A DNA stretch of 64,000 bases. It comes from Patescibacteria group bacterium. GTDB taxonomy: Bacteria; Patescibacteriota; Patescibacteriia; UBA9934; GWF2-40-263. A program made the translations under genes and the position numbers. Under the pieces are notes generated by a model. It saw nothing but the letters and a program-made list of their open reading frames with translations, did not search any database and had not been told where the DNA came from. Location of the stretch: NCBI GenBank assembly GCA_018814025.1, contig JAHJAM010000025.1, forward strand, positions 2,530 to 66,529, in the 5' to 3' direction. The stretch's first letter is position 1. Each line of letters starts with the position of its first letter. This document shows positions 32,951 through 53,686 of the stretch, one piece after another.

Positions 32951-32953
32951 AAA

Positions 32954-33671: not shown

Positions 33672-33692
33672 TTCCATAGCCGGATGATGGAA
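33672..33692. repeat. REP-like repeat family B, right flank of RAYT (TTCCATAGCCGGATGATGGAA)
   Basis: Inverted relative to 32930-32950. Near-duplicate 90 nt upstream at 33582-33602 (AATTCCAAAGCCGGATGATGGAAA). Confidence 0.8.
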
Positions 33693-33701
33693 AGTTTGGT
33701 A

Positions 33702-36120: not shown

Positions 36121-38127
36121 ATGAAGAAAATCTTTTGGCTGATCGGCATGCTGGCGGGCTGCACCATCGAATGGCAGCCGACTCATCAATATTATACCGA
36201 GGGGGAGATTGAAGAGCCGAGCGCGCCGGTGGCCGAAGCCGCGCCGGAATCAGAGCCCGGGGATCAGCCCGCGGATTTGGGCGGCGCCAATGAAGGCGCA
36301 ATCAGCCAGCTGCCGTTTGCTTTCGGGCAAAGCCGGCGCTGCGTCCAAGGCGCACACGACCCCTTCAGTCATAACGGGTATTCCACCCGCTATGACTTGG
36401 ACTTGGACACCAGCAATAGCGAAGACGAGGAGATTTATGTGCCGGTTTCCGGGGTGGCTTACGCGCACCAAAACAATCCGGAAATAAATTTCGGCCGGCA
36501 CGTGAACATTGATTTGGGCGACGGCACCTACGTCACGATCGCTCATTTCAAAGAGATATTTTTGCACGACGGCGCGCCCGTGGCCGCCGGCCAGCTGATG
36601 GGCCTGGAAGGCTGTACAGGTTTTTGCACGGGCGATCATGTGCATTTCGGCCGGCATCGGGGCGCGGCCTGGGAGGAAGCGCAACACGGAGAATCCATCC
36701 CAGTCCAGGTGCAAACCGAGAACGGGGTTTGGTCTTCCGAATCATTTGTTTGCGGTTTGGAGAACGGACAATCCTATCGTTCGAAATTATTGGAGATCGG
36801 CACTCACCCCAACGGCACTTTGGTGAAATCCGCGCATGCGTCTAAGACTTATTTGTTGGATCAAGGACGGCGGCGCTGGATTACCAATCAGGATGTGTTC
36901 TGGAGCCGGGGCTACGATTTTCAAGACGTGATCATGGTTTCGGATGAAGAGCTGCAAGCGTATCCGGCCGGGTCGGACTTGGATCAGGCCGGCGGCGTGT
37001 TCGCGGCTTACGACGGCAATCAAGAGCTGTGGCTGTTTGTCGGCCACGAGTCGCAGACGGATCGCCAGCGCCAGCGCGTGGGCCGATTGGATTGGCCGGC
37101 GGTGCTGGCGTCCTGGGGTTTGAATCCCGCGGACGCGAATGATTTGCGGCCTTACACGGTCAATAGCTCCTCTTTTTTCGCCCAATGGCCGCCGTATCAG
37201 GGCTGGGCGACTTTTCGAGACGGCGCTTTGCTGACTCAGGTTTCCAGCTCGGACGTGTTGGTGGTCAGTGATGGCGCGGCCGTGCCGATTGAAACCTGGC
37301 CCGCATTTTTGCAGCCGGGTTTCCGGCCGGATCGGATCTTAACCATCGAGGACGGTAGTTTAGATTATCATTTTGCCGTGGTGGGATCTTGTGCGAACGC
37401 GAGCGGCATTTGCTTGCGGGCAGGGGATTTGCATCAATACGGTTCATTGGATTTGGGCGTGCCGGCCAGGGCCAGACCGCAACCGGAAGTCATTCTGCCG
37501 GATCCGGAACCGGAACCTGAATCTGAACCGGAAGTGATTCCCGAGCCCGAACCAGAGGTTATTCCGGATCCCGAACCGGAACCGGAAGTGATTTTGCCTG
37601 ATCCGGAACCGGAACTGGAAGTGATCCCAGAGCCAGAACCCGAGCCCGAACCGGAGGTTACTCCGGATCCGGAACCAGAGCCTGAACCGGAAATTGAGAT
37701 TGTGCCCGATCCCGAGCCTGAATCTGAACCGGAGCCGCCAGCGCCTTCGTATTTGAGCGTGCGCTGGACCACGCCTTTTGGGGTGCGGGCTGAACGCATC
37801 ACTCTGTCCGGCGAATACACTTTTGCGGACGGCAGTCTGGGTTTTTTCTGGCACGAACTCAAGACCGTGCATGACGCTGCGGAAATCGCGATCCTGTTTT
37901 ATGGCGCAGCCGCCGGGGACAGTTTCCGATTTTCAGTTGAGTTTGCGGATGCCAACGGCTATGTGAGCTGGTCATGCATCGGTCCTTACGTGACCGGTAC
38001 GAATCAGCGCGGAACGCTGCAGGGAAGCGCGTCCGCGCATGTGGATAATCAAGAAGTAAATGTCCAAACCGCGGGCGATCCTTCGGGACAAACCACGGGC
38101 TGCGGACTGATCGTTCATCTGCCTTGA
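36121..38127 (+). CDS. M23-family (LytM-like) peptidoglycan endopeptidase lipoprotein with a Pro/Glu-repeat linker
   Basis: Lipoprotein signal 'LIGMLAGCT'. M23 motifs '[17 protein letters not shown]...[14 protein letters not shown]'. PEPEPE low-complexity region (aa ~455-540). Confidence 0.8.
37480..37740 (+). repeat. imperfect tandem nucleotide repeats (CCGGAACC/GGAACCGGAA units) encoding the PEPE linker
   Basis: Repeated gatccggaaccggaacc / gaaccggaagtgattcc units. Confidence 0.7.
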
Positions 38128-38132
38128 ATTCT

Positions 38133-38198
38133 AACCCCAGATTTTCGCTAAAATCTGGGGTTTTTTTCTTAGAAAAAGCCAGAGCCCGGCTCTGGCTT
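38133..38198 (+). terminator. two tandem rho-independent terminators
   Basis: AACCCCAGATTTTCGCTAAAATCTGGGGTTTTTTT, then AAAGCCAGAGCC-CGG-CTCTGGCTT. Confidence 0.85.
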
Positions 38199-38256: not shown

Positions 38257-41004
38257 ATGCAAAGGTTTCAGACTCGGAGCCTAGAAGTGTTTTTGCGCTT
38301 GCAAGAGCGCTGGAACAAACATAAGAATCATCCATTAACTTGGTTGGGAATTTTTGTATTAGTCGCCGTGGCCGCGGGTTTGCTTTTCGTGAATCCGGTC
38401 TGGGCTCAGACGACGCCGGCCGCGACTGACGCGGTCAGTGAAAACCTGGTCAAGCGTTTTGCGGGTTGGATTGCGGGCATTGTAATCGAATACGTGGTGC
38501 CGGCCGTGACCCAGGTGTTTTTGTTGATTATCAGCATCGTGATCACCATCATGCAATACAATAGTTTTTCCACTTCCACGGTGGTGGGTACGGGCTGGGT
38601 GATTGTGCGCGATATCATGAATATTTTCTTTGTCATGGTGCTGATCGTGATTGCCATGGGCACTATCTTTGGCGGCGGCAAGTTTAAGTGGACCCAGCAA
38701 GTGCCGCGCTTAATGCTGTTTGCTTTGCTGATTAATTTTTCGCGGACCATTTGCGGCATCATGATTGATTTTGGCCAAGTGATCATGCTGACTTTTGCCA
38801 ACGCTTTGAAAGATTTGGCCTCGGGCAATTTTATTCAATTGTTCGGGATCATGGATTTTTACCAGTATAGCCAGACTGGAGTTTCGGCCGCGACCACTTC
38901 AAAATACGAGCTGTTGCTGGTGGCTTTGATGACGCTTTTCGTGATGCTGGCCGTAACCATCACCATGGGTATTTTTGTGATGATTTTGATTTATCGCATT
39001 GTCATGCTTTGGATTTTGGTGGTGCTTTCGCCTTTGGCTTTTTTCTTGGGCGGGGCCAGGGATTTGTTCGGACAAGAAGGCTACATCAAATGGTGGACGC
39101 AGTTTAAGTGCGCGGTGGTGATCGGCCCGGTGCTGGCATTTTTCTTATGGCTGACTTTATCCGTGGCCGGATCCGGCAGCGTTTCCATTACCGAAGGCCT
39201 GACCACGGCTTCGACCAGTACTGATAATCCGTCAGACATGCTGACTAAGATTTTTGAAAAAGGAAACTTTATCAGCTTATTGATCGGTTTGGGCATGATG
39301 TACGCGGGGTTTGACGCGGCCTCAAGTTTTTGCGGCAGCGAAGCCATGTTCAGCGGCATGATCGGCCGAGCCAAAGGTGCAGTCGGGACGGCCGCTAAGT
39401 GGACAGCCGGCGGAGCCGCGGGCTTGGCGATTTTGGGCACGCGCCAAGGAGCGAAAGCTGTGAGTTCAGTGGGGACCGGCGTGGGTAAAGCCGCGGCCGG
39501 CGCGGGTTCGGCGGCTTTGATCGGGGGCACGGCCGGTTTGGTGGCCAGCAACAGCGGGTTAGCTCGAGTGACCGGTAAATTGTTGCGCACCCCAACAGCG
39601 CAAGGCCGAGCTGAGGTGGCGCGCGATTTGGCCGGATCTAAGAATAAGACCGTGGCACGCTTAGCCGGCGGCTATGCTGATACTTTGGATAAGCGGGTAG
39701 CTGCCGATTATGTCGAGGCGGGCAAAGGCATGGAAGGCGCCAGCCGCCAGACCAAGCTTGATTATTTGGATAGCGTGGCGCGCGGGGGCAAACCGACTTT
39801 GCCGGGCGAGCAAAAGCGGGCGGCCATGGCTTTCAGCCAGGCCATGGGCGATCCCAAGGCTTTGGAACAATTGGAAAAGAAAGGCCAGCTTAAGAGTCTT
39901 TATGATATGTTCGGCAAAGATTTGGAACGCATCTCCGGCGGCGATGATAAAATGGCGGATCGGCTCGGCGCTTTTGAGGAATCACGGCCTGATTTGACCG
40001 GCGATACTGATAAGATTGATGCTTCGAATATTGGGAAATTAGGCTTGGGCGCGTTCGCGGCCAAATCGGTTAGTGACAGCTTGCGTGGCCGACCGGCTCC
40101 GGTCGGATCTAAAGCGAATGATTTGTACGAGCATGTGGCGCAGGGATATTTGGGACCGGCTAAACAAGCGGCTTTGCTTGAAGGCGAGTCCGGAATGTTT
40201 AAGAAAATGAGTGGCGAAGAATTAGCCCAGCTGGCGCCGGAACGAATAGCGGATAAAATTGATGTGACTATGGTTGAGAAGAGTCCGGGCATGGTGGCCA
40301 ATGTCATGAACAGCACTAATCCGCAAGTGCAACAGGCGGTTCGCGGTTTGGATCCGAGTGTTTTGGATCGAATGATGCGCGCGCACGCGGGCATTTCGGC
40401 CACCGGTCAAGTGGAAGATGCTGATAAGTTTAAGTCAGCCATTAGCGCCAACCCGAGCCTGGTTTCGACCTTTACGCCGGCCATGATGAGCGGCGGGGCT
40501 TCAAAAGCGATTGCGGAAAATTTCGGGGTGAAAGAATGGCAAAAAGCCAGCGCGCAAATTCAAAAGAATCCGGATGAGAATGTGGAATTGCGCATGAATT
40601 TGGCTCAAGCTTCGGATGAAGCGGCTCAAGGAGAAGATTACAATGACCAATCAGTCAAAGCCGCGGCCATGTTTGATCAACAAATGTCAGCCATGGATGC
40701 GCGGGAGACTGCGGAGATTGAGCGTCGAACTTCGGCCACGGAAATTGTGAACACAGCCGCGGCTCAGGAACAAATTACGCAAATTACCAAGAAATTGAGA
40801 TCGGATAGCACGGCTTTTGACCAGGCGCGCGAAAAAATGCTGGCGGCGCAAGGCCGGTCCCGAGCGGCCGTGGAAGCGAATGATTACGTGAAGGCAACCA
40901 AGTTTGACGACATCGCCCATAAGTATGAATTGCAGTCGGAAAATTTAGCCGCCAAGATCGCGGAAGCCAATCGAAAAATTGAAGCCTTGGAAGGCAATGC
41001 GTAA
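38257..41004 (+). CDS. polytopic membrane protein, VirB6/TrbL/TcpH-like (T4SS channel component) with a long Ala/Lys/Glu-rich C-terminal domain
   Basis: Signal-like N-terminus. Eight or more TM helices in the first ~420 aa. A C-terminal ~500-aa hydrophilic low-complexity/coiled-coil region. The architecture matches Gram-positive VirB6-like proteins. Confidence 0.5.
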   Translation: MQRFQTRSLEVFLRLQERWNKHKNHPLTWLGIFVLVAVAAGLLFVNPVWAQTTPAATDAVSENLVKRFAGWIAGIVIEYVVPAVTQVFLLIISIVITIMQYNSFSTSTVVGTGWVIVRDIMNIFFVMVLIVIAMGTIFGGGKFKWTQQVPRLMLFALLINFSRTICGIMIDFGQVIMLTFANALKDLASGNFIQLFGIMDFYQYSQTGVSAATTSKYELLLVALMTLFVMLAVTITMGIFVMILIYRIVMLWILVVLSPLAFFLGGARDLFGQEGYIKWWTQFKCAVVIGPVLAFFLWLTLSVAGSGSVSITEGLTTASTSTDNPSDMLTKIFEKGNFISLLIGLGMMYAGFDAASSFCGSEAMFSGMIGRAKGAVGTAAKWTAGGAAGLAILGTRQGAKAVSSVGTGVGKAAAGAGSAALIGGTAGLVASNSGLARVTGKLLRTPTAQGRAEVARDLAGSKNKTVARLAGGYADTLDKRVAADYVEAGKGMEGASRQTKLDYLDSVARGGKPTLPGEQKRAAMAFSQAMGDPKALEQLEKKGQLKSLYDMFGKDLERISGGDDKMADRLGAFEESRPDLTGDTDKIDASNIGKLGLGAFAAKSVSDSLRGRPAPVGSKANDLYEHVAQGYLGPAKQAALLEGESGMFKKMSGEELAQLAPERIADKIDVTMVEKSPGMVANVMNSTNPQVQQAVRGLDPSVLDRMMRAHAGISATGQVEDADKFKSAISANPSLVSTFTPAMMSGGASKAIAENFGVKEWQKASAQIQKNPDENVELRMNLAQASDEAAQGEDYNDQSVKAAAMFDQQMSAMDARETAEIERRTSATEIVNTAAAQEQITQITKKLRSDSTAFDQAREKMLAAQGRSRAAVEANDYVKATKFDDIAHKYELQSENLAAKIAEANRKIEALEGNA

Positions 41005-41034
41005 GCGTTAACCAGTTTCATAAGCAGGAGGATT

Positions 41035-43257
41035 ATGGCTAATCAGCCAAAGACAATGCAAGATTTACCGGAGGCGGTCGTGGATTTTTTAAACGGCCTG
41101 GAAGGTTTTGAATATATCAGCCATTTCATTAAGAAATTCGGTTTAAAACCAGAACAAGATATTGAAGTGATTAATTTGGTTTTGGATACGGTTTTGGGCC
41201 AAGTGGTTTTCGCGGATTTGCCGGAAGAAATAGAGGTGCTGTTCGGATTTGATGCCGAACAAGCTAAGCAAGCAGCCATTGAGCTGGCTGGCCATCGCTT
41301 GTTGCCAATTTCCGGCGTGATCGGGAATGTGGCCGAGCAGATTAAGAATTGGGGAGGGGATTTGGAACAATTTAAAAGCCAAGGCACGGTCGTAATGCCG
41401 GAGCTGACCGCGGAATCTTTTGTGCAAGGGGCTTTGAAGGATTTGGGCGTGGCCATGGAAAATGAAGTGCTGCAGCACCGTTTGGAATTGGTTTTGGTTT
41501 CTTACGCCAAAGGCGTGCGGGATCAGAGCGAAGCTCTGGGCACCATGACCCGGGCGCAAAAAGTCGGGGGTTTGGATATGGCGCAGGAAGATGCCGAAGT
41601 TCTGCTGAAGGAAATTGATCAGAAGATGGCGTTTATAAATATTTCGTTTAAGGAGAAAGTAGGTAGGGAAGAAGTAGGTAGGGTAAAAGTTCAGGATGTG
41701 AAGCCGCCGGTGAGGCAGGTTAGAAACGATAAGATGATGGTTGGAAAGGAGCAAACGCGGGTTGGAAGTGATTTGACCAAGAAAAAGAACAAAAGGGATC
41801 CGGAAATAGAGAAGATGCTGGCGACTTTGAAAGCGGATCAGGAAAAATCAAAGGCATTACTTAGTCAATTGAAGAATCAAAAAGTTAGAAATGAACAAAC
41901 GCAAGTTGGAAATGTTTTAACTAAGAAAAAAGACCCGGAAATAGAGAAGATGCTGGCGACTTTGAAAGCGGATCGGGAGAAGTCGCGGGAGCTGTTGAAG
42001 CAATTGAAGAATCAAAAAATTAAAAATGAGCAAAAACAGGTTGGAAATGAGAAGATGAGGGTTGGAAATAAGGATACGATTAAAACCGCGAAAAAGGATT
42101 TAATAGTTGAGAATGAAGCTTTGGCGAGAAATAATGGCGCGCCCACGGCCGCGGTCAAAGCGGAAGTTAAGAAGCCGGTTAAATTAGCGCCAAAAAAGCC
42201 AAACAAAAAATCAGTCGATACTTCGATATTAAATAAGAAAGCCAAAACCGGTTTGGGGGCTGATGTTTTCGACGATGAGGATGAGGCTGAGGTTCAACGA
42301 ATCGCTTCGGTCAGAGCCAAATCTTTGGCCGGCGCCAATGATCCGATTCAGGCGCTGATTGAGCAAATTATCGGGACGGCCAAGCTGAAATTTTCGGATG
42401 AAGAGATTAAACAGCGATTTATCAAAGCCGTGGAATCGCGGATTCGCGATGTGCGGGACATTTACGAAGTGCGGGCGCAATTGGAAAGCTCCAAGGATCA
42501 AGGCGGAGTGGGCTTGGCCGGGGCTCAGCTGGCGGAAACCGTGCAAGTGATCGATCGCTTGGTGAATGAACATCAAACCAAGCTGCAAGCCGAGTCGGAA
42601 AAGAAACAACACGAGTCAATGGCGCAAAAGCGGGCACAAACCGCGCAGGCCGCGCTGGCCGCCAAGCAGCTGGCAGATCAATTAATGGCCAAGCGCTACG
42701 CGGAAATCACGGGCCGAGCGCCGAGCGAGGCGGTGATCGGATCAGTGACCGGAAGCAACTCGGCCGGATCCGCGGAAGCAACCCTAGCCCGCCAAGAACA
42801 GCAAATTGACGCGCATCAAGTCAAGCAAGCGGTGATGGGCGCGCAGCGGATTGCGCCGAAAACCGCGAAACTCTCGGCCTCGAGCATTATGGCCGCGGCC
42901 GGCGCCAAGCCTCAAGTTCAGGATGTGCGCTTCACCCGCCGCTTAGCCGGTCCGGTGGAAGAGCTGCGCAATATGACGATCGTGGAATTCCGCCGCTTAT
43001 CAACCGATCCGCAAGCGGCCAGCGAAAAGATCAAAGATAAAATCGCCTTGGTTGAAGATCAAGGCTACGAACAAAAAATCGCGGCCATTAAAGGCTGGCG
43101 CTCCTCGCCGATCAACCAAGCGTATTTAAGCTTATCGCGCGAAGCTTTGCTTTCGGGCAAGCGGATCTCGGACTTATTAAAGGAGAAGGGGGAGGGAAGC
43201 TTAACCGAGGCCGAGCTGGTGGCGATTATGAAGCTCAACGGCGAGTTGCATTTCTGA
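41035..43257 (+). CDS. hypothetical coiled-coil protein with 45-aa tandem repeats
   Basis: Preceded by AGGAGGA RBS. Lys/Glu/Gln-rich. ~2.5 copies of the 'DPEIEKMLATLKAD.EKS..LL.QLKNQK..NEQ.QVGN' unit. Confidence 0.6.
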   Translation: MANQPKTMQDLPEAVVDFLNGLEGFEYISHFIKKFGLKPEQDIEVINLVLDTVLGQVVFADLPEEIEVLFGFDAEQAKQAAIELAGHRLLPISGVIGNVAEQIKNWGGDLEQFKSQGTVVMPELTAESFVQGALKDLGVAMENEVLQHRLELVLVSYAKGVRDQSEALGTMTRAQKVGGLDMAQEDAEVLLKEIDQKMAFINISFKEKVGREEVGRVKVQDVKPPVRQVRNDKMMVGKEQTRVGSDLTKKKNKRDPEIEKMLATLKADQEKSKALLSQLKNQKVRNEQTQVGNVLTKKKDPEIEKMLATLKADREKSRELLKQLKNQKIKNEQKQVGNEKMRVGNKDTIKTAKKDLIVENEALARNNGAPTAAVKAEVKKPVKLAPKKPNKKSVDTSILNKKAKTGLGADVFDDEDEAEVQRIASVRAKSLAGANDPIQALIEQIIGTAKLKFSDEEIKQRFIKAVESRIRDVRDIYEVRAQLESSKDQGGVGLAGAQLAETVQVIDRLVNEHQTKLQAESEKKQHESMAQKRAQTAQAALAAKQLADQLMAKRYAEITGRAPSEAVIGSVTGSNSAGSAEATLARQEQQIDAHQVKQAVMGAQRIAPKTAKLSASSIMAAAGAKPQVQDVRFTRRLAGPVEELRNMTIVEFRRLSTDPQAASEKIKDKIALVEDQGYEQKIAAIKGWRSSPINQAYLSLSREALLSGKRISDLLKEKGEGSLTEAELVAIMKLNGELHF
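41715..42075 (+). repeat. 135-nt tandem repeat (~2.5 copies) inside the 41035 gene
   Basis: Unit starts 41797 (gatccggaaatagagaagatgctggcgactttgaaagcggatc...) and 41932 (gacccggaaatagagaagatgctggcgactttgaaagcggatc...). Confidence 0.8.
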
Positions 43258-43269
43258 TAAGATGAGATT

Positions 43270-43704
43270 ATGCCCCAACAGTTTACCGTGCCACAATTTA
43301 TCGACGCGGAGGATAAAATCCTCGGACCGATCACCATCCGCCAGTTTGTCATCTTATTAGTGGCGTTTATGACGGATGCGGTTTTGTACAAACTTCTGCC
43401 GTTTGTGCCTTTTCTTTTGGTGGCCATTCCCTTAATCGCCGTGGCCGGCATTATCGCTTTTGTGAAGATTAACGGCATGCCCTTTCATTATTTTATTTTG
43501 AATTTGCTGCAAACTCTGAAGCGGCCGCAACTGAGAGTGTGGGATAAGACGATTAACGATTCGGAGCTGCGGGATTTGATCAAAGTGGTCAAAGAACCCC
43601 CGCCGCCGCCGCCGGAACGCAAGGCGCCGGTCTCCCGGTCGCGCTTGAACGAATTAACCTTAGTCGTCAACACTGGCGGACTTTATAAACCCGAGGGTGA
43701 ATAA
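43270..43704 (+). CDS. small two-TM membrane protein, VirB3/PrgI/TcpE-like
   Basis: 144 aa. Two adjacent hydrophobic helices. Located immediately upstream of the VirB4-like ATPase, as in Gram-positive T4SS. Confidence 0.45.
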   Translation: MPQQFTVPQFIDAEDKILGPITIRQFVILLVAFMTDAVLYKLLPFVPFLLVAIPLIAVAGIIAFVKINGMPFHYFILNLLQTLKRPQLRVWDKTINDSELRDLIKVVKEPPPPPPERKAPVSRSRLNELTLVVNTGGLYKPEGE

Positions 43705-43709
43705 ACAAT

Positions 43710-44387
43710 ATGCAAAGCAAACAAATGGCAAAATCTAAACCCGGGCCGGCCACGCAGCGCTATTTGGATATCGCGGAAATCCGCGATGATTTGGTGATCA
43801 TGAAGGACGGTACGGTGCGGGGCGTGCTCATGGTTTCCAGCATCAACTTCGCCCTTAAATCCGTGGATGAGCAAGAGGCGACCATCCAGGCCTACATGTC
43901 TTTTTTGAACAGTTTGGAATATCCGATTCAGATCGTGATTCAATCGCGTAAGATGAACATTGACGCCTACCTCGAATCTTTAAACGAACAATACAAAAAA
44001 TCCGTGAATGATTTGCTGCGGGCGCAAATTCTCGATTACCGCAATTTCGTTCAAGAATTGGTCAGTTTGGGAGAGATTATGCAGAAGCGCTTTTACGTGG
44101 TCGTGCCTTATGATCCGATCAGTAATAAGAAAAAGAATTTTTTCAGCCGCTTATCCGAGGCGATTTCGCCGGTGGCCGCGGCCAAGCTTTCCAATAAACA
44201 AATGAAGGATCGGCTCGATCAATTGGGCCGCCGGCTGGAAATGACCGCCGGCCAGCTGGAGTCCATGGGCTTGCAGGTGGCGCGTTTGGATACGCAAAGC
44301 CTGATTGAATTGTATTACACGGCTTACAATCCCGATCTTTTTGAAGATCAGAAATTGGATGATATTTCCAAGATCCGGACCGACTAA
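43710..44387 (+). CDS. VirB4/TraC-family N-terminal domain (split gene, part 1)
   Basis: GAGGGTGA RBS. 'DGTVRGVLMVSSINFALKSVDEQEATIQAYMSFLNSLEYPIQIVIQSRK' resembles the N-terminal region of Gram-positive VirB4-like ATPases. Same reading frame as the next ORF. Confidence 0.55.
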   Translation: MQSKQMAKSKPGPATQRYLDIAEIRDDLVIMKDGTVRGVLMVSSINFALKSVDEQEATIQAYMSFLNSLEYPIQIVIQSRKMNIDAYLESLNEQYKKSVNDLLRAQILDYRNFVQELVSLGEIMQKRFYVVVPYDPISNKKKNFFSRLSEAISPVAAAKLSNKQMKDRLDQLGRRLEMTAGQLESMGLQVARLDTQSLIELYYTAYNPDLFEDQKLDDISKIRTD

Positions 44388-44411
44388 TTTTTAATCAGCA
44401 AATGAGAATTT

Positions 44412-46568
44412 ATGGCCATTGAAATAGGCAAAATCCAAAAAGGCGCCATGCCCGCGCCGCCGCCGGCGCCGGTCAAACCCAAAGAAATGACCGAGGTGGA
44501 GAAACAAGCGGCCGAAACCAAAATTTTGTTGGAAGAGGAAAGGATCTACCGCCAAGGCGTGGTCACGGTTCGGGATTTGATTTCCCCGGCCGCTTTCGAA
44601 GTCAATCCGACTTTTTTGAAAATTTCCGGGATTTACGTGCGCACCATGTTCGTGATCACTTATCCGCGCCACTTGGGCGTGGGCTGGTCTTCGCCTTTGA
44701 TCAACCTGAATAAGACTTTGGATATCGCCATGTTTTTCTATCCGGTCAAGGCGAACATTATTTTGAAGCAATTGCAGAAGAAGGTCGGTATTTTAGAAGC
44801 CGGGATCATGGCGGACGCGGAAAAAGGTGCGCCGCGCGACCCGCTGCGGGAAACGGCCTTGCGCGACATTGAAGCTTTGCGCGACGCCTTAACTCAGGGC
44901 GTGGAGCATTTTTTCCAATTCGGTTTTTACGTGACCATGTATGCCAAGAATGAAGAGGAGCTGGAAAAGACTTCGCAAGAATTCGAGGCCATGCTGGGCA
45001 GCAAGTTGATTTACAGCAAAGCCGGCTACTATCAGGCCGAGCAGGGCTTCAACTCAACTTTGCCTCTGGGCAACGACGAGCTGATGATCAGCTATAACAT
45101 GAATACTTCGCCGATCGCGGCTTCCTTTCCGTTTATCAGTTCGGATTTGACTTCGGACAACGGGATTTTATTCGGCATCAACCGGCATAACAACTCTTTG
45201 ATTCTGTTTGACCGCTTCAGCTTGCAGAATGCCAATTCGGTGGTGTTCGCGACTTCGGGGGCGGGCAAATCCTACGCGATCAAATTAGAAATTTTGCGCT
45301 CATTGATGATGGGCGTGGAAGTGATCGTGATTGATCCGGAAATGGAATATAAGCATTTGTCCGACGCCGTGGGCGGCACTTACGTGAATGTTTCTCTGGC
45401 TTCGCCGGCCAAAATCAACCCGTTTGATTTGCCTAGAAAAGTGGGCGAGGACACGAAAGTCGACGACATTATTCGCAGTGCGGTGATCACCCTCAAGGGC
45501 TTGTTGCGGATTATGATCGGCAAGCCGATCGGCGAAGCCGGCAAGGTCGGTTTTGAACCGGAAGAGGATTCGATTTTGGACCGGGCCTTGATTGAAACTT
45601 TTGCCAAAAAAGACATTACGGCCGAGACCGCGAATTTGTCAGCCGTGGAGCCGCCGATCATGCAGGATTTTCAAGATGTGCTGGAAGGCATGGAAGGGGC
45701 GGATGATTTGGTGGCGCGTTTGAAAAAATATACGGAGGGCACCTTCTCCGGCTTGCTGAATTCGCCGACCACGGTGGAAATGAACAATCAGCTGGTGATC
45801 TTTTCCGTGCGCGATTTGGAAGATGAACTGCGGCCCATGGCGATTTATACCATCGTCAATTATATTTGGAACGTGGTGCGCGCCGAGCGGAAAAAGCGCA
45901 TTTTGGTGATTGACGAAGCTTGGTGGCTGATGCAGCACGACGATTCCGCGAAATTCATTTTTGCTCTGGTCAAGCGCTGCCGTAAGTATTTCATGGGCGT
46001 GACCACCATCACCCAGGACGTGAATGACTTTTTGCGCTCGCCTTACGGCCAGGCCATTGTGACCAACTCTTCAATGCAAATTCTTTTGAAGCAGTCGCCG
46101 GCCGGCATTGATAAAATTCAAGAAACTTTCCAGCTGACGGACGGAGAAAAATATCTTTTGTTGGAATCGGCCGTGGGCGAGGGGATTTTCTTCGCCGGAG
46201 CCAAACACGCGGCCATCAAGGTGGTGGCTTCGTACACAGAGGATCAAATCGTGACCACGAATCCGGCTCAACTTTTGGAAATTGAGGGCGCGAAAAAGGA
46301 ATTTGATGAAAAAATGGCGGCCGAAGAAACGGCCAGAAAGGAAAGCGCGGGACCGGGCGGATCAGTCCAAGCCCAAAGTGAAGAACCAGTTGAGGAACCG
46401 GCGGAAGCGGCGGTTGAAGAATTAAGCGCGGAGCAAATCGAAGCCCAAAAGGTCCAAGCCCAAGCCGCGGCCGCCTTTTTAGCCAAAGAGCAAGGCGGAG
46501 CCGCGCCCGGTACCGAAGCCGCGGGCCGAGCTGAAGCGGATAAATTACGCGAATCTTTAAAGGTTTAA
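44412..46568 (+). CDS. VirB4/TrsE/PrgJ-family type IV secretion ATPase (split gene, part 2)
   Basis: Walker A 'FATSGAGKSY'. Walker B 'RILVIDEAWWLM'. CagE/TrbE/VirB4 family. Acidic C-terminal tail. Confidence 0.85.
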   Translation: MAIEIGKIQKGAMPAPPPAPVKPKEMTEVEKQAAETKILLEEERIYRQGVVTVRDLISPAAFEVNPTFLKISGIYVRTMFVITYPRHLGVGWSSPLINLNKTLDIAMFFYPVKANIILKQLQKKVGILEAGIMADAEKGAPRDPLRETALRDIEALRDALTQGVEHFFQFGFYVTMYAKNEEELEKTSQEFEAMLGSKLIYSKAGYYQAEQGFNSTLPLGNDELMISYNMNTSPIAASFPFISSDLTSDNGILFGINRHNNSLILFDRFSLQNANSVVFATSGAGKSYAIKLEILRSLMMGVEVIVIDPEMEYKHLSDAVGGTYVNVSLASPAKINPFDLPRKVGEDTKVDDIIRSAVITLKGLLRIMIGKPIGEAGKVGFEPEEDSILDRALIETFAKKDITAETANLSAVEPPIMQDFQDVLEGMEGADDLVARLKKYTEGTFSGLLNSPTTVEMNNQLVIFSVRDLEDELRPMAIYTIVNYIWNVVRAERKKRILVIDEAWWLMQHDDSAKFIFALVKRCRKYFMGVTTITQDVNDFLRSPYGQAIVTNSSMQILLKQSPAGIDKIQETFQLTDGEKYLLLESAVGEGIFFAGAKHAAIKVVASYTEDQIVTTNPAQLLEIEGAKKEFDEKMAAEETARKESAGPGGSVQAQSEEPVEEPAEAAVEELSAEQIEAQKVQAQAAAAFLAKEQGGAAPGTEAAGRAEADKLRESLKV

Positions 46569-46569
46569 T

Positions 46570-47133
46570 ATGACGCGCAAACAAAAAATAGGAATCGGGA
46601 TGGCGCTAATTGCGGTGATAATCATGTTGATTTGGCTCTGGCTGCTGCGCGGGCCAGCGCCGGCCGTACCGCCGGCCGTGATCGCACCCGCGATTGAGGA
46701 AGAAACCCAGGCGCCGACATCGGTCCCGACTCAGGAAATGGCGGCCGAGCAGGCGAAGCGGGATGAGTCCGCGGGTTTGCAGTCTTTGGCGAAAACTTTT
46801 ACCGAACGCTATGGCAGTTTTTCCACGGAAGCGAATTTTGCCAATTTGTCGGATGTGATGATTATGATGACGCCGAGCTTTTCGGCTCAAACTCAAGCCG
46901 ATATCGAGGCGGCGAGCTTGGGAGAAAATTTTTACGGCGTGACCACCAAAGTGGTTAGTGTGAGCGTGGATCAATTGGATGAGGAAGCGGGTTTGGCAAA
47001 GTTGACGATTAACACCCAGCGCCAGGAAGCCGTGGACAGCCCGCAGAATATCTCGGTCAAATATCAAGATTTAGTTTTGAATTTTGAAATGATTAGCGGA
47101 ACATGGAAAGTCTCGTCCGCCGTTTGGCAATAG
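46570..47133 (+). CDS. membrane-anchored hypothetical protein (possible VirB8/PrgL/TcpC-like)
   Basis: N-terminal TM 'IGIGMALIAVIIMLIWLWLL'. About 150-aa extracytoplasmic domain. Position after VirB4. Confidence 0.35.
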   Translation: MTRKQKIGIGMALIAVIIMLIWLWLLRGPAPAVPPAVIAPAIEEETQAPTSVPTQEMAAEQAKRDESAGLQSLAKTFTERYGSFSTEANFANLSDVMIMMTPSFSAQTQADIEAASLGENFYGVTTKVVSVSVDQLDEEAGLAKLTINTQRQEAVDSPQNISVKYQDLVLNFEMISGTWKVSSAVWQ

Positions 47134-47801
47134 AATCGATTTGGCCGCGGTTTTGCATCCGTTGCGGTCGCGAGGGGGAAGTATTTTGCCGGCCTTGCCA
47201 GGAGGCTTACCGGCCGAGGATTTCTTTTGCGGCTTGTCCATTTTGCGGACGAGGCGGGTCTGATCGAGTCTGCGACGAGTGCGGGCCGAAAACGTATTTG
47301 GACGGCGTGATCAGCTTGGCCGCTTACGGAGATCCGGTCGTTCGCGAAGCGATCGGACTTTGGAAGTACCACGGCGATGAACAAGCTCAAGCCACGATTG
47401 AATTATGGGTGCGGCAGCTGGCTCAAAGTTTGCGGCTGGCCGAGGCAGTTGAGGCCGTCAGTTTTATCCCTTTGCATGAGAGTAAAAAGCGCAGCCGCGG
47501 GTTTGATCAGGCTCAAGAATTGGCCAAAATGGTGGCGCGCCTGATCAATCGGCCGGTTCAAGAAGTTTTGCGGCGCGACCGGAAGACCCGGGCTCAAGCC
47601 CAGCTGACCAATGAACAGCGGCTGGTCGGAGATCTGGATGGAATTTTTCGAGTGCAGGGGAATCTGCCCCAGAGCGTGGTTTTGTGCGATGACGTGTTTA
47701 CCAGCGGGGCCACCATGGATGCGGCCGCGCGAGAATTGAAAGAACACGGCGTAAAAACGGTTTTCGGATTAACTTTAGCCAAAGGTTCATTAAAGACTTG
47801 A
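47103..47801 (+). CDS. comFC: ComF-family protein (ComFC; zinc ribbon + phosphoribosyltransferase domain)
   Basis: 'CIRCGREGEVFCRPCQ...CPFCG' double zinc ribbon. PRTase motif 'VVLCDDVFTSGATMDAA'. Confidence 0.8.
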   Translation: MESLVRRLAIESIWPRFCIRCGREGEVFCRPCQEAYRPRISFAACPFCGRGGSDRVCDECGPKTYLDGVISLAAYGDPVVREAIGLWKYHGDEQAQATIELWVRQLAQSLRLAEAVEAVSFIPLHESKKRSRGFDQAQELAKMVARLINRPVQEVLRRDRKTRAQAQLTNEQRLVGDLDGIFRVQGNLPQSVVLCDDVFTSGATMDAAARELKEHGVKTVFGLTLAKGSLKT

Positions 47802-47857: not shown

Positions 47858-47951
47858 GGAGAGGTACCCAAGAGGCTGAAGGGGCGGGTTTGCTAAACCT
47901 GTAGGTCGGGGTTTTCTCGGCGCGGGGGTTCGAATCCCCCCCTCTCCGCCA
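47858..47951 (+). tRNA. tRNA-Ser (anticodon GCT)
   Basis: Acceptor GGAGAGG/CCTCTCC. Anticodon loop TTGCTAA. Long variable arm. T-arm GGGGG-TTCGAAT-CCCCC. Encoded CCA. Confidence 0.85.
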
Positions 47952-48045
47952 TCGAGCTTAGCTCGATTGTTCCGCGGTTAGCCAAAGCTCAGCTTTGGCC
48001 GCACTCGAGATAAGCTCGATGATGAGTCGAGCTCAGCTCGACCAC
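47952..48045 (+). repeat. tRNA-Ser-associated ~95-nt repeat, copy 1 (three AGCT-centred hairpins)
   Basis: TCGAGCTtAGCTCGA, CCAAAGCTcAGCTTTGG, GTCGAGCTcAGCTCGAC modules. ~90% identical copy at 48172-48265. Confidence 0.8.
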
Positions 48046-48081
48046 AAACCGTGAGGGTAAACAGTTTGAACTTTGTCGCAA

Positions 48082-48171
<90 letters not shown>

Positions 48172-48265
48172 TCGAGCTTAGCTCGATTGTTCTACGGTTA
48201 GCCAAAGCTGAGCTTTGGCTGTACTCGAGATAAGTTCGATAATTAGTCGAGCTTAGCTCGACCAA
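48172..48265 (+). repeat. tRNA-Ser-associated ~95-nt repeat, copy 2
   Basis: tcgagcttagctcgattgttctacggttagccaaagctgagctttggctgtactcgagataagttcgataattagtcgagcttagctcgacc. Confidence 0.8.
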
Positions 48266-48288
48266 TGAAAATAATTTTCTCTTGATTT

Positions 48289-48783
48289 ATGGAGGATCAA
48301 AAAGTAAAAATTGCCGGCCGGCCCTTGCTTGATTGGGAAGTGGACGAATTCATGAAGCATGATCGTTCCCCGGCTTGGTATATCGTAGCGGCCGTGATCG
48401 GTTTGAGCTTAATCATTTATGCGGTGGCCACGGCGAATTTTCTGTTCGCGGTCATCATGCTGATGATCGGCATCATTATCCTGATCTCTTCATTTACCGA
48501 ACCGAACGCGATTGAAGTTTTTATCACCACCATGGGGGTGGTCGTGGGCGATTCTTTTTACGAATATAAAGATATTAAAGATTTTGCCGTGATTTACGAA
48601 CCGCCGGAGGTGAATCTTTTATACCTGAATTTCAAGTCGCCTTGGCAGCCGGTGATGGCGATTCCGCTGAAAGAATTAGATCCGAATACGGTTCGAGAAA
48701 TTTTATTGAATTACCTGGCTGAAGATTTGGAACAAGAGGAAGAACGCTTGACAGACGTGTTGCGCCGGCTGTATAAGTTGTAG
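48289..48783 (+). CDS. hypothetical membrane protein (two TM helices)
   Basis: 164-aa ORF. Hydrophobic pair 'WYIVAAVIGLSLIIYAVATANFLFAVIMLMIGIIILI'. Confidence 0.55.
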   Translation: MEDQKVKIAGRPLLDWEVDEFMKHDRSPAWYIVAAVIGLSLIIYAVATANFLFAVIMLMIGIIILISSFTEPNAIEVFITTMGVVVGDSFYEYKDIKDFAVIYEPPEVNLLYLNFKSPWQPVMAIPLKELDPNTVREILLNYLAEDLEQEEERLTDVLRRLYKL

Positions 48784-48804
48784 GCTTCGTCAAAAATTTT
48801 TTAT

Positions 48805-48881
48805 GCGGTCGTAGCTCAGATGGATAGAGCATCAGCTTGCGGAGCTGAGGGTCGCAGGTTCGAATCCTGCCGATCGCACCA
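48805..48881 (+). tRNA. tRNA-Arg (anticodon read as GCG)
   Basis: Acceptor GCGGTCG/CGATCGC. Anticodon stem TCAGC/GCTGA with loop TTGCGGA. T-arm GCAGG-TTCGAAT-CCTGC. Encoded CCA. Confidence 0.75.
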
Positions 48882-48955: not shown

Positions 48956-51007
48956 ATGGCGATTCACTTGAGCACATCAGTGGCGGCTTTGCCCGGCATT
49001 GGGGCCGGGGCCGCGAAGGATTTGAAAAACCTGGGCGTGGTTTGCGTGCGCGATTTGTTGGAATATTTTCCTTTTCGCTATGATGATTTTTCAAAAATCA
49101 AAGCCATCGCCGATTTGCGGCATGGCGATACGGTCACTGTGACGGGCCGGATTCGAGCCATTGAATCGCGCCAAGCGAAAAATCGCCGGCTGACTTTAAC
49201 GGAGGCGATCGTGGAGGACGGTACCGGAGAAATCAAAGTGATCTGGTTTAATCAGCCTTATCTGGAAAAAACTTTGTCGATTGGGAAAGTGGTTTCTTTA
49301 GCCGGGACCGTGGATTCGAAATTCGGCAAAACTTTAGTCAATCCGATTTACGAAGCCGCGCACACGAATATTCACACGGGCCGAATTGTGCCGGTTTACG
49401 GCCGAACCGGGGCTTTGACCATCCGTCGCTTGCGCGGCGCCATGCAAACGGCTTTGGCCGCGGCGGATGAAATTGTGGAGTGGCTGCCGGGGAAAGTCCG
49501 AGGGCAGGAACATTGGCCGGACGAGCCCGAGGCGCTGCGGGCGGTTCATTTTCCCAAGGACAATCAAGAATTGGCGCGGGCGATTGAGCGGCTGAAATTT
49601 GACGAGCTGTTTTTGCATCAGATGCTGTTTGCGGAAGTGCGCCGGCAAAAGGAGGTTAAGGAAGCCAAGGCTTGGGCGATCGATGAGTCTTATCTTAAGG
49701 AATTCGTTCAGCGTTTGCCGTTTGAATTAACCACGGATCAAAAAATGGCGGTTTGGGAAATCGTGCAGGATTGTGCCAAGGATCACCCCATGAACCGATT
49801 GTTGGAAGGGGATGTGGGCAGCGGCAAAACCGTGGTGGCGGCCATGGCTTTGGCGCACGCGATCAAACAAGGCGGCAAAGCCGCGTATCTGGCGCCCACG
49901 GAAATTTTAGCCAAGCAAGTGCATCAAGAATTGTCGAAATATTTATCCGGAGTGGAAGTGGCGCTGTTTACGGCCGGGCAAGTGAAATTGGGGCAGGAGG
50001 AGATTAGCCGAAATAATTTATTAGCGCTCTTAGCTCGAGGCGACTGCGCCTGCGTGGTGGGCACGCAGACTTTGATTCAAGAAGGCGTGAGTTTGCCGGA
50101 TCTGGGCTTGATCGTGATTGATGAACAGCATCGTTTTGGCGTGCGCCAGCGGCATGCCTTGCTGGAAACCGGGGATCGGCCGGCGCCGCATCTTTTGTCC
50201 ATGACGGCCACGCCGATTCCGCGCTCTTTGGCTTTGACTTTGTACGGCGATCTGCAGCTTTCGATCATCCGCCAAAAACCCAAGGGCCGCAAGCCGATCG
50301 CCACCCGGATCGCTTTTGAAAAAGCCAAAGCCGCCATGTGGCAGCAGGTGGAAGCGGAAATTAAAAACGGCCATCGGGCTTACGTGATTTGTCCGCTGAT
50401 CGATCCGTCAGACAAGCTGGGGACTCAGTCCGTGACTGAAACCGCCCAGGTTTTATCCAAGGGAGTATTGAAAAAAGTTAAGGTGGGAATTTTGCACGGC
50501 AAGCTGAAATCCGATGAGAAAGAACAGGTGATGAATGATTTTAAGAGCGGTCGAATTGAAGTTTTGGTGGCCACCACCGTAGTGGAAGTGGGAGTGGATG
50601 TGCCGGATGCGACCATGATGGTTATTTTGGGCGCGGAGCGGTTCGGTTTGGCGCAACTGCACCAGTTGCGCGGCCGGGTCGGGCGCAGCGAACGCCAATC
50701 GTATTGTTATCTGGCGCCGGAGACTTTTTCATCAAATACCAAAGAACGCTTAATGGCCATGGTGCATTGTGAGGACGGTTTTGAATTGGCGGAGCGGGAT
50801 TTGCAACTGCGCGGCGCCGGCAATGTTTTCGGCACGGCCCAATCCGGGTTTCCGGATTTTAAATTGGCCACGGTCGGGGACGCGGATTTAATCAAAAAAG
50901 CCCATGAATGGGCTCAGGAAATTTTGGCCAAAGATCCGCATTTGGATCGCAAGCCGTTATTGCGGCAAAAAATTGATGATGCGCTGGCGCAAGCTCATCT
51001 GGAGTAA
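48956..51007 (+). CDS. recG: ATP-dependent DNA helicase RecG
   Basis: Wedge domain. Helicase motif I 'GDVGSGKTVVA'. Motif II 'DEQHRFGV'. Confidence 0.92.
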   Translation: MAIHLSTSVAALPGIGAGAAKDLKNLGVVCVRDLLEYFPFRYDDFSKIKAIADLRHGDTVTVTGRIRAIESRQAKNRRLTLTEAIVEDGTGEIKVIWFNQPYLEKTLSIGKVVSLAGTVDSKFGKTLVNPIYEAAHTNIHTGRIVPVYGRTGALTIRRLRGAMQTALAAADEIVEWLPGKVRGQEHWPDEPEALRAVHFPKDNQELARAIERLKFDELFLHQMLFAEVRRQKEVKEAKAWAIDESYLKEFVQRLPFELTTDQKMAVWEIVQDCAKDHPMNRLLEGDVGSGKTVVAAMALAHAIKQGGKAAYLAPTEILAKQVHQELSKYLSGVEVALFTAGQVKLGQEEISRNNLLALLARGDCACVVGTQTLIQEGVSLPDLGLIVIDEQHRFGVRQRHALLETGDRPAPHLLSMTATPIPRSLALTLYGDLQLSIIRQKPKGRKPIATRIAFEKAKAAMWQQVEAEIKNGHRAYVICPLIDPSDKLGTQSVTETAQVLSKGVLKKVKVGILHGKLKSDEKEQVMNDFKSGRIEVLVATTVVEVGVDVPDATMMVILGAERFGLAQLHQLRGRVGRSERQSYCYLAPETFSSNTKERLMAMVHCEDGFELAERDLQLRGAGNVFGTAQSGFPDFKLATVGDADLIKKAHEWAQEILAKDPHLDRKPLLRQKIDDALAQAHLE

Positions 51008-51011
51008 CTTT

Positions 51012-51028
51012 CCATCATCCGGTGATGG
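51012..51028. repeat. palindromic repeat family B copy (CCATCATCCGGTGATGG) between convergent recG and radA
   Basis: Near-perfect palindrome related to the RAYT-flanking repeats. Probably also serves as a bidirectional terminator. Confidence 0.7.
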
Positions 51029-51035
51029 ACAAGTG

Positions 51036-52355
51036 TCAGAGTAAATCTTTAATGGTTTTAACGATTTTGACTTCGAGCTTGGTCGGAGTTTTTTGGTGTT
51101 TGGGCACAATGGCGTGTTCGAGGCCAAAGCGCTGGGCTTCGGTTAGGCGTCTTTCCAAATAGGGCACGGATCGAATCTCGCCGCCCAAACCGACTTCGCC
51201 CACAAGCACGGTGGCGGCCTGGCCGATCACGCCTTTTTCCGCGGATAAGATGGCGGCGCAAACCGCTAAATCCGCGGCCGGTTCTTTGACGGTTAAGCCG
51301 CCGATGACATTAATGTAAATATCCCGCTCGCCCAGCTTGAGGCCGGCGTGTTTGGATAAAATCGCGCTCAACATCTGTAGGCGATTTTGGTCAAAGCCGG
51401 AGGCGCGGCGAATCGGGTTGCCGTACGCGGTTTTTTCCACTAAAGCTTGGATTTCCACCAGAAAGACACGCGAGCCTTCGGCGAGGGCCGTGATGACTGA
51501 GCCGGGCACATTGACTCGTTCTTCCAAAAAACGAGCCGAGGGATTGGCCACGGCTTGCAGGCCGTTTTGAGTCATGGCAAAAACCCCGACTTCGTCAGTG
51601 GAGCCGAAACGGTTTTTGCTGGCGCGAAGCAGGCGGTAAAGATGCTGAGGATCACCCTCGATCGACAAGACCACATCCACTAAGTGTTCGAGCATTTTTG
51701 GACCGGCCACGCTGCCGTCTTTGGTAACTTGGCCGATGAGCAAAATCGGGATGTCCGTGCGCTTGGCCAAATCCAACAATAAACTGGTGGCGTAGCGAAC
51801 CAGGTTGGGACTGCCGGCCGGACTGTCCATTTCCAAGGAGTTCAGGGTTTGGACCGAATCGATAATAGCTAAGCCGGGTTTTTCTTTTTCAATGGCCGAG
51901 ATCAAGCTTTCGATCGGGTAGGGCTCGAGAAAGTTGATGTGCTCAAGCGAGGCGGCCAAACGAGAAAATCTTTGCGCCAGTTGATGCGCGGATTCTTCGC
52001 CGGAAATATAAAGCACCGGTTTATCTTTTTGACTAATGTTTCCGGCTAAGGATGTCACTAAGGTAGATTTGCCAATGCCGGGTTCGCCGGAAATTAAAGT
52101 TAAGCTGCCAGGAACCAAGCCACCACCTAAAACGCGATCCACTTCCGGATCGCCGGTTGAGAGGCGCTCGGGCCGGCGGGTTTGCTCAAGATCAAAAAGC
52201 CGCGCGCTGGTCGGCGCCGCGGCTTTATTCTTTAGGGGTTTCAGAGCCGGGACAACCGTTTCCTCCTGTTCAATTAGAGTGCCCCATTTGCCGCACTGGT
52301 CGCAACGGCCGGACCATTTGGCGGATTGGGCATCGCAATAGGTGCAATGATGCAT
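51036..52355 (-). CDS. radA: DNA repair protein RadA/Sms
   Basis: N-terminal zinc finger 'CTYCDAQSAKWSGRCDQCGKWG'. Walker A 'GEPGIGKST'. KNRFG motif. Lon-protease-like C-terminal domain. Confidence 0.92.
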   Translation of the reverse strand: MHHCTYCDAQSAKWSGRCDQCGKWGTLIEQEETVVPALKPLKNKAAAPTSARLFDLEQTRRPERLSTGDPEVDRVLGGGLVPGSLTLISGEPGIGKSTLVTSLAGNISQKDKPVLYISGEESAHQLAQRFSRLAASLEHINFLEPYPIESLISAIEKEKPGLAIIDSVQTLNSLEMDSPAGSPNLVRYATSLLLDLAKRTDIPILLIGQVTKDGSVAGPKMLEHLVDVVLSIEGDPQHLYRLLRASKNRFGSTDEVGVFAMTQNGLQAVANPSARFLEERVNVPGSVITALAEGSRVFLVEIQALVEKTAYGNPIRRASGFDQNRLQMLSAILSKHAGLKLGERDIYINVIGGLTVKEPAADLAVCAAILSAEKGVIGQAATVLVGEVGLGGEIRSVPYLERRLTEAQRFGLEHAIVPKHQKTPTKLEVKIVKTIKDLL

Positions 52356-52360: not shown

Positions 52361-53686
52361 TTATTTGCAGGTCGTGGACATTTTGGGTTTTTCAAAATGC
52401 CAAGGCTCGGAGCTGAGCACGCAGAAGCCCTGGGCTTTCATTTCCGCAATCAGCGTGGCTTGGCAGGCATTGGCAAAACAGGCAGACAAGTCGCCCAAGC
52501 ATTCTTTTTGGCTGATGCAAGGAATCCATTTATCTTCATACTTTTCCGCGGCCCAAATGTCAACGGCTCGGGCCGTGGTGTGCGGGCAATTTTTCGGGTC
52601 GAGATTTTTTAAAATGCAGGTTGAGGGCCGGTTCGGTTTTCGATTGCAGGTGGCTGAGCCGGGCTCGTTTTGACAATTTTGTCTGATCAAAGCGATTTGC
52701 TTTTCCACCGAACGGAAACCGGAAGAAATATACAGCCCATAGTTTTTTCCGTTCAAGTTGCCGGCGGCTTGTTCCACGGCTTGGGCGGCCTCTTGAGTGA
52801 TCAGCGAACCGGCGGGCTTGGGATTGAGAATATTGGCGCCGGCCGCGTTGCGCAAATCCGCGGGCGGAGCCAGGCCGCTGATCGAATTTTCTTCGCCTTC
52901 GCCAAAAGGCAGGCCCGGGGCCGAAGCCACTTGCTGGACGATAACCGGACGCAATAAGGTCAATTCCGGATTCACGGTATAAAGAATGGCGTAGGTGCCC
53001 AAGAGCAGAACGAAACCGATCACGGCGTTGGAAATGCGAGTCTTGGCTTCGCCGGCATCGCCGCGGCCGGCGGATAAAACATACTGCAGCCCGCCAATCA
53101 TGACCATAACGATGGCAATGGTTAAGGAAGCGCCGATCAGCCACTGATAGACAGAGGAAAAATATTCGCCAATGAAGTCGATAGAAAGTTTATTGCCTTT
53201 GCGCAAAGGCTCGGAAAAGCTCAAGCCGGGAATGGGCACGGCCAGTTGGGGCGTTTGGTAGGGCACGATTTTGATTTCCGCGTTGGGATCGGTTTGCACT
53301 CCGGAAAAGCTGCGCTGTTCGCATTCGGCCAGGGCGTTTTTTTACGCGGTCGGGGCGGTGCTTGGGTCAGCGATAAACAGTTGATTGATAAAACTGACGT
53401 CGTAGTATTTTTTGTCGATGCGCAAGCCCACGTCATTGGGACAGGCGACGTTGCAATAATATAATCCCTGATCCGCGCCGGGTTCGGAAACCGGAGTCAC
53501 GACTTGGCAATATTTGCCAATTTCATCTTTAAAGTTCGCGTCGTCAACTCGGAAATAACAAAGACAGCGCGCATTGACTGCTTGCGCTCGGGCGACCGGG
53601 GCGGCGGAAAGAAACAAAAGACCGAACAGTCCGATGAGCACGGGTCCGAGCATTAGGAGTTTAAGGGTTTTGGCGGTTGGCGACAT
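52361..53686 (-). pseudogene. cell-wall hydrolase paralogue (Cys-rich N-domain + two-TM module + M15/VanY-like D,D-carboxypeptidase) interrupted by one in-frame TAA at 53342-53344
   Basis: ORFs 53342-53686 and 52361-53299 are in the same frame. Read-through gives '...TA*KNALAECEQRSFSGVQTD...', aligning with 'NQAQRDCANRAFSAVAG' of the intact paralogue (53691-55067). M15 motifs 'SGFRS', 'HTTARAVD', 'EPWHFE'. Confidence 0.65.

Follow-up and report, generated by a model that had tools for sequence, protein, structure and literature searches.

A seven-gene operon at the locus

We analyzed a 64,000-nucleotide (nt) stretch of Patescibacteria DNA, referred to here as the window, within which all coordinates are counted. 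From 38257 to 47801 it carries a block of seven codirectional, tightly packed genes that encode parts of a type IV secretion system (T4SS) and the protein ComF. Their order is virB6-like, a gene for a conserved protein of 740 amino acids (aa), prgI/virB3, trsD, virB4, virB8-like, and comF (Table 1). All seven genes are intact, and their open reading frames (ORFs) were verified at the listed coordinates. The first six are separated by gaps of 30, 12, 5, 24, and 1 bp, respectively, and the virB8-like gene and comF overlap by 31 nt. A terminator-type hairpin, with a 13-bp stem followed by a T run, lies between an M23 peptidase gene and the virB6-like gene, and on its 3′ side comF is followed by three genes for tRNAs and one for a small membrane protein, and then by a second hairpin. 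Because of this tight spacing and the features at either end, the block looks like a single seven-gene operon ending with comF. Curated profile hidden Markov models (HMMs) identified four of the seven products; of the remaining three, two were identified through structure prediction.

TABLE 1 Features of the T4SS operon and its surroundings (TM, transmembrane; PRTase, phosphoribosyltransferase)
Coordinates	Strand	Feature	Evidence or remark
38257-41004	+	VirB6-like polytopic membrane protein, 915 aa, long hydrophilic C-terminal tail	Structure prediction and fold search
41035-43257	+	Conserved 740-aa protein, no TM segment or signal peptide	Between virB6-like gene and prgI in 58/58 loci
43270-43704	+	PrgI/VirB3-like 2-TM protein	PF12666, E 2.6e-10, 41.1 bits (cutoff, 27)
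43710-44387	+	TrsD-like protein, detached first part of VirB4 N-terminal domain	Profile matches
44412-46568	+	VirB4-family ATPase, MPF_FATA related	conju_CD1110, E 1.4e-99
46570-47133	+	VirB8-like bitopic protein, 187 aa: N-terminal TM anchor, linker, NTF2-like domain	Structure prediction and fold search
47103-47801	+	ComF (ComFC/GntX family): double zinc ribbon and PRTase-like domain	TIGR00201, E 3.7e-19, full length
36121-38127	+	M23 peptidase lipoprotein, Pro/Glu-rich linker	PF01551, E 7e-10; LAGC lipobox
38133-38162		Terminator-type hairpin	
47858-48881		tRNA-Ser(gct), tRNA-Ser(tga), gene for 164-aa membrane protein, tRNA-Arg(gcg)	
48956-51007	+	recG	NCBIfam RecG, E 1.9e-232
51036-52355	-	radA	RadA-type domains
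52361-53299	-	VirB2-like (PF18895, T4SS_pilin) 2-TM hairpin fused to VanY/M15 peptidase	Pfam
53342-53686	-	Small secreted Cys-rich protein	
53691-55067	-	Signal peptide, Cys-rich domain, VirB2-like hairpin, and M23 peptidase in one protein	Pfam
55042-55695	-	DsbA-like protein	
22167-31643	+	Secreted protein, 3158 aa	Signal peptide; 4.2% Cys; weak CBM_4_9 match
32954-33664	-	REP-associated tyrosine transposase (RAYT-like, Y1)	
3034-4401	-	455-aa protein matching archaeosine-biosynthesis radical SAM protein RaSEA	TIGR01210, E 6.5e-42, below cutoff

For comparison, we took the best 80 of 394 VirB4 relatives confirmed in a species-level genome collection (loci L001 to L080). All 80 come from Patescibacteria metagenome-assembled genomes (MAGs), classified as Uhrbacteria, Magasanikbacteria, Falkowbacteria, or similar, at 70 to 82% identity. 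As judged from these sequences, the nearest relatives of the window are ABY1-type bacteria (GTDB class ABY1) and not Saccharibacteria, and the comparison with Saccharibacteria made in an earlier sequence-only reading of the window was therefore dropped. Gene order is preserved in essentially every one of the 80 loci that spans the operon: the four genes upstream of virB4 are kept in 55 to 58 of 58 loci, prgI and trsD are separate ORFs in 75 loci, and the virB8-like gene adjoins virB4 in 61 of 73. The flanking genes (serS, the M23 gene, recG, and radA) are much less stable; recG, radA, and, after radA, a gene for a pilin-hydrolase fusion are present in 19 of the 41 loci with at least 7 kb of downstream sequence. 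Median identity to the window in the same loci is 73% for VirB4, 62% for SerRS, 51% for RadA, and 47% for RecG, a comparison somewhat biased by the choice of loci according to VirB4 similarity. Because the gap is large despite this bias, it indicates that VirB4 is probably a core gene under strong purifying selection.

Motor and membrane components

VirB4 matches the conju_CD1110 model over positions 175 to 729 of 752 with 334 bits (cutoff, 325), and its Walker A (SGAGKS) and Walker B (VIDEAW) motifs are intact. Its top match in the PDB is the C-terminal domain of a Thermoanaerobacter VirB4 (4ag5; E 4.6e-44), and a match to CedB is weak and confined to the P loop (5.8e-13; 48 bits, cutoff 700). 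The product of the preceding gene matches positions 98 to 262 of NCBIfam VirB4_plasma (2e-11), TrsD/TraD (4.5e-7), and positions 18 to 139 of CD1110. The sequence-only reading had likewise described a VirB4 with intact Walker motifs preceded by a separate ORF for its N-terminal domain. A frameshift origin of this split was rejected, since each of the 76 related loci that yielded both genes has trsD and virB4 as separate ORFs, with a median gap of 5 bp. The PrgI/VirB3-like protein, whose two hydrophobic helices lie within residues 17 to 63, clears the PF12666 cutoff, in agreement with its earlier description as a VirB3/PrgI-like protein.

The two remaining membrane proteins were identified through their predicted structures. 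When the model of the 915-aa product of the first operon gene was searched with Foldseek, five TrwI chains ranked at the top, at weak E values of about 0.08 to 0.13, which supports a VirB6-like assignment at moderate strength. The protein has the TcpH-like architecture of an "extended VirB6." For the small membrane-anchored protein encoded at the VirB8 position, structure prediction and fold search confirmed a predicted VirB8 fold. Thus, the three products that the sequence-only reading had singled out as likely T4SS parts (from the genes starting at 38257, 43270, and 46570) all resemble such parts, the first and last by structure and the second by profile HMM. Scans of the 915-aa, 740-aa, and 187-aa proteins against Pfam, NCBIfam, and PHROG gave nothing useful, and PDB profile searches with family alignments of the 187-aa and 740-aa proteins returned low-complexity or chance matches only.

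The 740-aa protein had been described as repeat rich. It does contain one 135-bp tandem duplication (1.9 copies; 45 aa) at 41800-42049; the duplication lies within an insertion, and the protein is chiefly a member of a conserved family. Its N-terminal domain (residues 1 to 200) is followed by a Lys-rich insertion (about 205 to 400) that contains the duplication and is lineage specific, being absent from most relatives, and then by a conserved middle region (440 to 520) and a conserved C-terminal domain (625 to 740). A search of 1.84 billion proteins with the C-terminal half yielded 2256 cluster representatives (50% identity); in the best 150 matches listed, the alignment reaches the C terminus or stops no more than 2 residues from the end. 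The protein has no Pfam, PHROG, or meaningful PDB match, and Pfam scans of 38 and 37 family members were also empty. It belongs to a large uncharacterized family and is a candidate for an overlooked component of the Patescibacteria T4SS.

The operon ends with comF

In the earlier description, comFC lay directly downstream of the T4SS genes. Both its ComF architecture and its adjacency hold; the gene is, however, inside the operon by virtue of its 31-nt overlap, and the protein scores below the curated TIGR00201 cutoff (233 bits). The same is true of 39 ABY1 orthologues, all of which align end to end with TIGR00201 (best E, 9e-35), score below that cutoff, and have ComF as their best match. A PDB profile search with ComF returned only the PRTase domains of phosphoribosyl pyrophosphate synthetases and other phosphoribosyltransferases, with no ComF structure among them, and a single-sequence PDB search found nothing.

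Where enough sequence was available, 71 of 73 loci have comF on the same strand as virB4 and no more than 1.5 kb downstream of it, and in 41 of 62 comF overlaps the virB8-like gene that precedes it, the median gap being −31 nt. This adjacency and overlap mark comF as the final gene of the operon and not as a mere neighbor. Its linkage persists even though median ComF identity across the related loci is only 32%, which argues for selection.

No conjugation-specific genes detected at a probably chromosomal locus

The sequence-only reading reported no VirD4 or relaxase in the window and held that a relaxase/VirD4 pair nearby would point to an ordinary integrated conjugative element (ICE). We detected no such pair: among nearly all window ORFs of at least 80 aa, no relaxase, type IV coupling protein (T4CP), or integrase was found. 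Replication genes were likewise undetected in the 64 kb. Five rounds of jackhmmer from the VirB4 P loop found no second VirB4/VirD4-like ATPase within 10 kb in the 80 loci, and for 126 unmatched flanking ORFs of the related loci, the 25 Pfam families listed were all housekeeping or metabolic. VirB7, VirB9, and VirB10 families were also undetected in the window; this outer-membrane core is not expected in a monoderm.

An ordinary ICE, or the decaying remnant of one, would fit the best matches of VirB4 to conjugative families (CD1110 and TraC), the two tRNA-Ser genes and one tRNA-Arg gene close downstream of comF, and the Y1 (REP-type) transposase 4.6 kb upstream. We consider this origin extremely improbable, and it is largely refuted by the missing relaxase, T4CP, integrase, and replication genes, by even GC content throughout the window with no compositional shift at the cluster, and by the finding of no att-like direct repeats bracketing it. 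The tRNA genes are probably not integration sites, because they are conserved neighbors of comF in related genomes; in the window, moreover, they are oriented with the 3′ end facing away from the cluster. The genes themselves are intact, strongly conserved across the class, and syntenic with housekeeping genes, and the conserved trsD/virB4 split speaks against frameshift decay. The remainder of the window is housekeeping chromosome, encoding TyrRS, ArgRS, NusA, YidC, GroEL, Sua5, KsgA, SerRS, RecG, RadA, HtpX, LemA, RseP, PheS, and others.

Very probably, then, the locus is a chromosomal, vertically inherited T4SS of the Patescibacteria clade, derived from MPF_FATA conjugation machinery and contained in one operon of an ABY1 (Uhrbacteria-like) bacterium. 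Membership of its VirB4 in this clade was judged from its relatives, the CD1110 model, and the Firmicute PDB match, that is, by similarity.

Wall hydrolases and secreted proteins linked to the operon

As the sequence-only reading noted, recG and radA follow the operon, and two pilin-anchored hydrolases lie beyond them. Both recG and radA encode recombination helicases. PF18895 domains occur 6 to 8 kb downstream of the operon solely as fusions to M15 or M23 hydrolases, and no free-standing PF18895 pilin was found in the window. The two fusion proteins have closely paralogous hairpins, and in database relatives this hairpin is joined to M23, VanY, M15_4, NlpC/P60, C39-like, or Amidase_2 domains. 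Sequence comparison thus suggests a modular family of putative pilin-anchored or pilus-displayed hydrolases. Genes for a small secreted Cys-rich protein and a DsbA-like protein adjoin the fusions.

Upstream, the M23 lipoprotein has a long (PEPE/V-I-P)n linker built from tandem repeats of 24, 33, and 99 bp and a C-terminal domain of unknown type. In 21 of 46 loci, its gene is the immediate 5′ neighbor of the virB6-like gene. The strong terminator behind it places the gene in a separate transcription unit, and the product is a possible VirB1-type cell wall hydrolase.

Farther upstream is the gene for the 3158-aa secreted protein, 6.6 kb from the operon. In several ABY1 genomes (loci L037, L042, L044, L049, and L066), relatives of this giant gene share the strand of the virB6-like gene and end 0 to 240 bp 5′ of it. 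Ancestrally, the giant protein may have partnered the T4SS as an adhesin or substrate.

What the machine may do

By analogy with R388 and pCF10, VirB3, TrsD, and VirB4 would form a membrane-anchored ATPase motor, with VirB8 as a ring around it and VirB6 as the channel. The VirB2-like hairpin/hydrolase fusions and the M23 lipoprotein would act outside the membrane and open the wall. A contact-dependent conduit to another cell could then import DNA; incoming single strands would meet the cotranslated ComF at the cytoplasmic face, and ComF would pass them on to recombination (RadA and RecG) or to nucleotide salvage. We tentatively and modestly favor this function, a nonconjugative, contact-dependent conduit that would import DNA and hand it over to ComF, because comF is kept as the translationally coupled last gene despite its low identity (about 32%), because no coupling protein or relaxase was detected at the locus, and because two systems lacking a T4CP, ComB (review PMC12857230) and archaeal Ced (cited in a survey of T4SS genes across Patescibacteria by Quinonero-Coronel et al. 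2025, Microb Genom 11:001409; PMC12102498), are DNA importers. A more far-reaching version strikes us as rather unlikely: that the ABY1 T4SS and ComF are one DNA-import machine for monoderm competence or nucleotide scavenging, in which a VirB6/VirB4 translocon replaces or bypasses ComEC, host DNA goes directly to ComF, and the 740-aa protein serves as a cytoplasmic adaptor in place of the coupling protein.

Several points weigh against DNA import, and some of them lend weight to its main rival, in which the machine works outwards, or attaches or feeds the cell, by exporting proteins or effectors or by building a VirB2-type surface structure, and comF is merely cotranscribed, through shared regulation or by historical accident, and works separately with ComEC and type IV pili. 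In Southlakia epibionticum, the only Patescibacterium tested, transposon sequencing (Tn-seq) showed the T4SS (SEML1_0006-0019) and the pilin array to be essential for epibiotic growth (Wang et al. 2023, Cell; PMC10633639), whereas none of comEC, comF, and dprA proved to be a fitness gene and transformation requires ComEC (PMC10633639; review PMC12857230). With the com genes dispensable and the T4SS essential, the conserved core role of the T4SS is not ComF-dependent transformation. The comF linkage is confined to class ABY1 (PMC12102498), and coregulation alone could explain it. The ComF of the window, moreover, falls short of the curated cutoff for its family. Attack on, or adhesion to, a host envelope would account for the extracellular hydrolase fusions and for the giant secreted protein linked to the locus at least as well as DNA import does; together with DsbA and the M23 lipoprotein, these proteins suit an export or contact machine. 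A coupling protein or relaxase may also lie elsewhere in the genome, the scan having covered the 64-kb window, and T4CP homologues are common in Patescibacteria, mostly far from virB4 (PMC12102498). On the other hand, no effector, chaperone, or coupling protein was recognized nearby, and the adjacency and overlap of comF, beside flanks that are less stable, are more than a passenger gene predicts. We regard export or contact as a realistic possibility, if not a probable one. DNA could also move in the opposite direction, with the system secreting chromosomal DNA to the environment or to host cells and ComF handling the outgoing strand; the gonococcal genetic island (GGI) T4SS of Neisseria gonorrhoeae is a precedent cited in PMC12102498, and comF, recG, and radA are linked to the T4SS in the window. 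This is very unlikely, as neither a relaxase nor a coupling protein was detected here. To our knowledge, all known DNA-exporting T4SSs need both, and we know of ComF only from uptake pathways.

No T4SS before that of the Patescibacteria had been shown to be essential for the growth of its own bearer. The translational coupling of comF to the virB8-like gene in ABY1 is the clearest genomic hint that DNA could be a substrate of this T4SS; if this is true, it would bear on the nucleotide supply and gene exchange of auxotrophic ultrasmall bacteria.

Other features of the window

The three tRNA genes also follow comF in most related loci, in varying orientation. In the window, a 122-nt direct repeat (91% identity) spans the 3′ part of each tRNA-Ser gene and about 90 nt downstream, and a minus-strand ORF at 47978-48265 was rejected as spurious because it overlaps a tRNA-Ser gene. 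Palindromic TTTCCATCATCCGG...ATGGAAA elements flank the RAYT-like gene (32930-33693), with a further copy between recG and radA (51009-51049). The RaSEA match near the start of the window is unusual for a bacterium.

Comparison with known systems

The nearest plasmid and transposon systems are the Gram-positive MPF_FATA machines. The pGO1/pIP501-type (TrsC-TrsD-TrsE) and CTn2 CD1110-type systems have the same order of VirB3-like protein, TrsD, and VirB4, and Gram-positive MPF_FATA systems also share with the window a VirB8-fold protein, a VirB6-like protein, a cell wall hydrolase, and the lack of outer-membrane parts. The window differs from them in having no detected relaxase or coupling protein at the locus, in its VirB2-like hairpins, and in belonging to the core chromosome, as an operon that includes comF, instead of to a mobile element. 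Like other extended VirB6 proteins, TcpH of Clostridium perfringens pCW3 resembles the 915-aa protein in combining an N-terminal polytopic domain with a hydrophilic tail of several hundred residues, although Pfam and NCBIfam scans detected no sequence similarity between the two.

Among DNA importers, Helicobacter pylori ComB is a T4SS that has neither relaxase nor T4CP, as at the window locus, and H. pylori uses ComFC downstream of DNA entry. ComB is, however, a diderm system with VirB7, VirB9, and VirB10 that passes DNA to ComEC at the inner membrane, and comFC lies outside the comB operons; no such core was detected in the window, which carries comF inside the operon. Archaeal Ced (CedA, CedA1, CedA2, and CedB) offers a parallel in a single-membrane cell, with a VirB4/HerA-like ATPase, a polytopic membrane protein, and import as its direction. 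Here the likeness in sequence is limited to the weak CedB P-loop match, with no CedA homologues.

The closest counterpart is the T4SS of other Patescibacteria. The survey by Quinonero-Coronel et al. described a monophyletic Patescibacteria VirB4 clade related to MPF_FATA, with TrsD as the commonest partner and PrgI/VirB3, VirB6, and VirB2-like pilins, including PF18895, near virB4; it found few VirB8 homologues, "nearly all" of them in ABY1, no relaxase in most genomes, and an ABY1 association of the T4SS with comF, recG, and radA (PMC12102498). The window shares the chromosomal site, the MPF_FATA-related VirB4, separate TrsD, PrgI/VirB3, and VirB6, likewise has no detected relaxase or T4CP at the locus, and carries the VirB8 and comF, recG, and radA of ABY1; its nearby PF18895 domains sit in hydrolase fusions, and we see no essential difference. 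The literature, too, takes the hedged view that such systems import DNA or interact with a host and do not conjugate (PMC12102498; PMC10633639). Since the survey already covers this clade, its lack of a relaxase, and the association with comF, recG, and radA in ABY1, the locus represents a published locus type and a published hypothesis, and the sequence-only reading was a correct independent rediscovery of both. To a locus type and a DNA hint already in the literature, the window adds confirmation and detail: structural support for VirB6 and VirB8 in ABY1, quantified adjacency and overlap of comF, a conserved 740-aa partner, and PF18895 hairpins that occur only as fusions to hydrolases, a form that the survey does not discuss.

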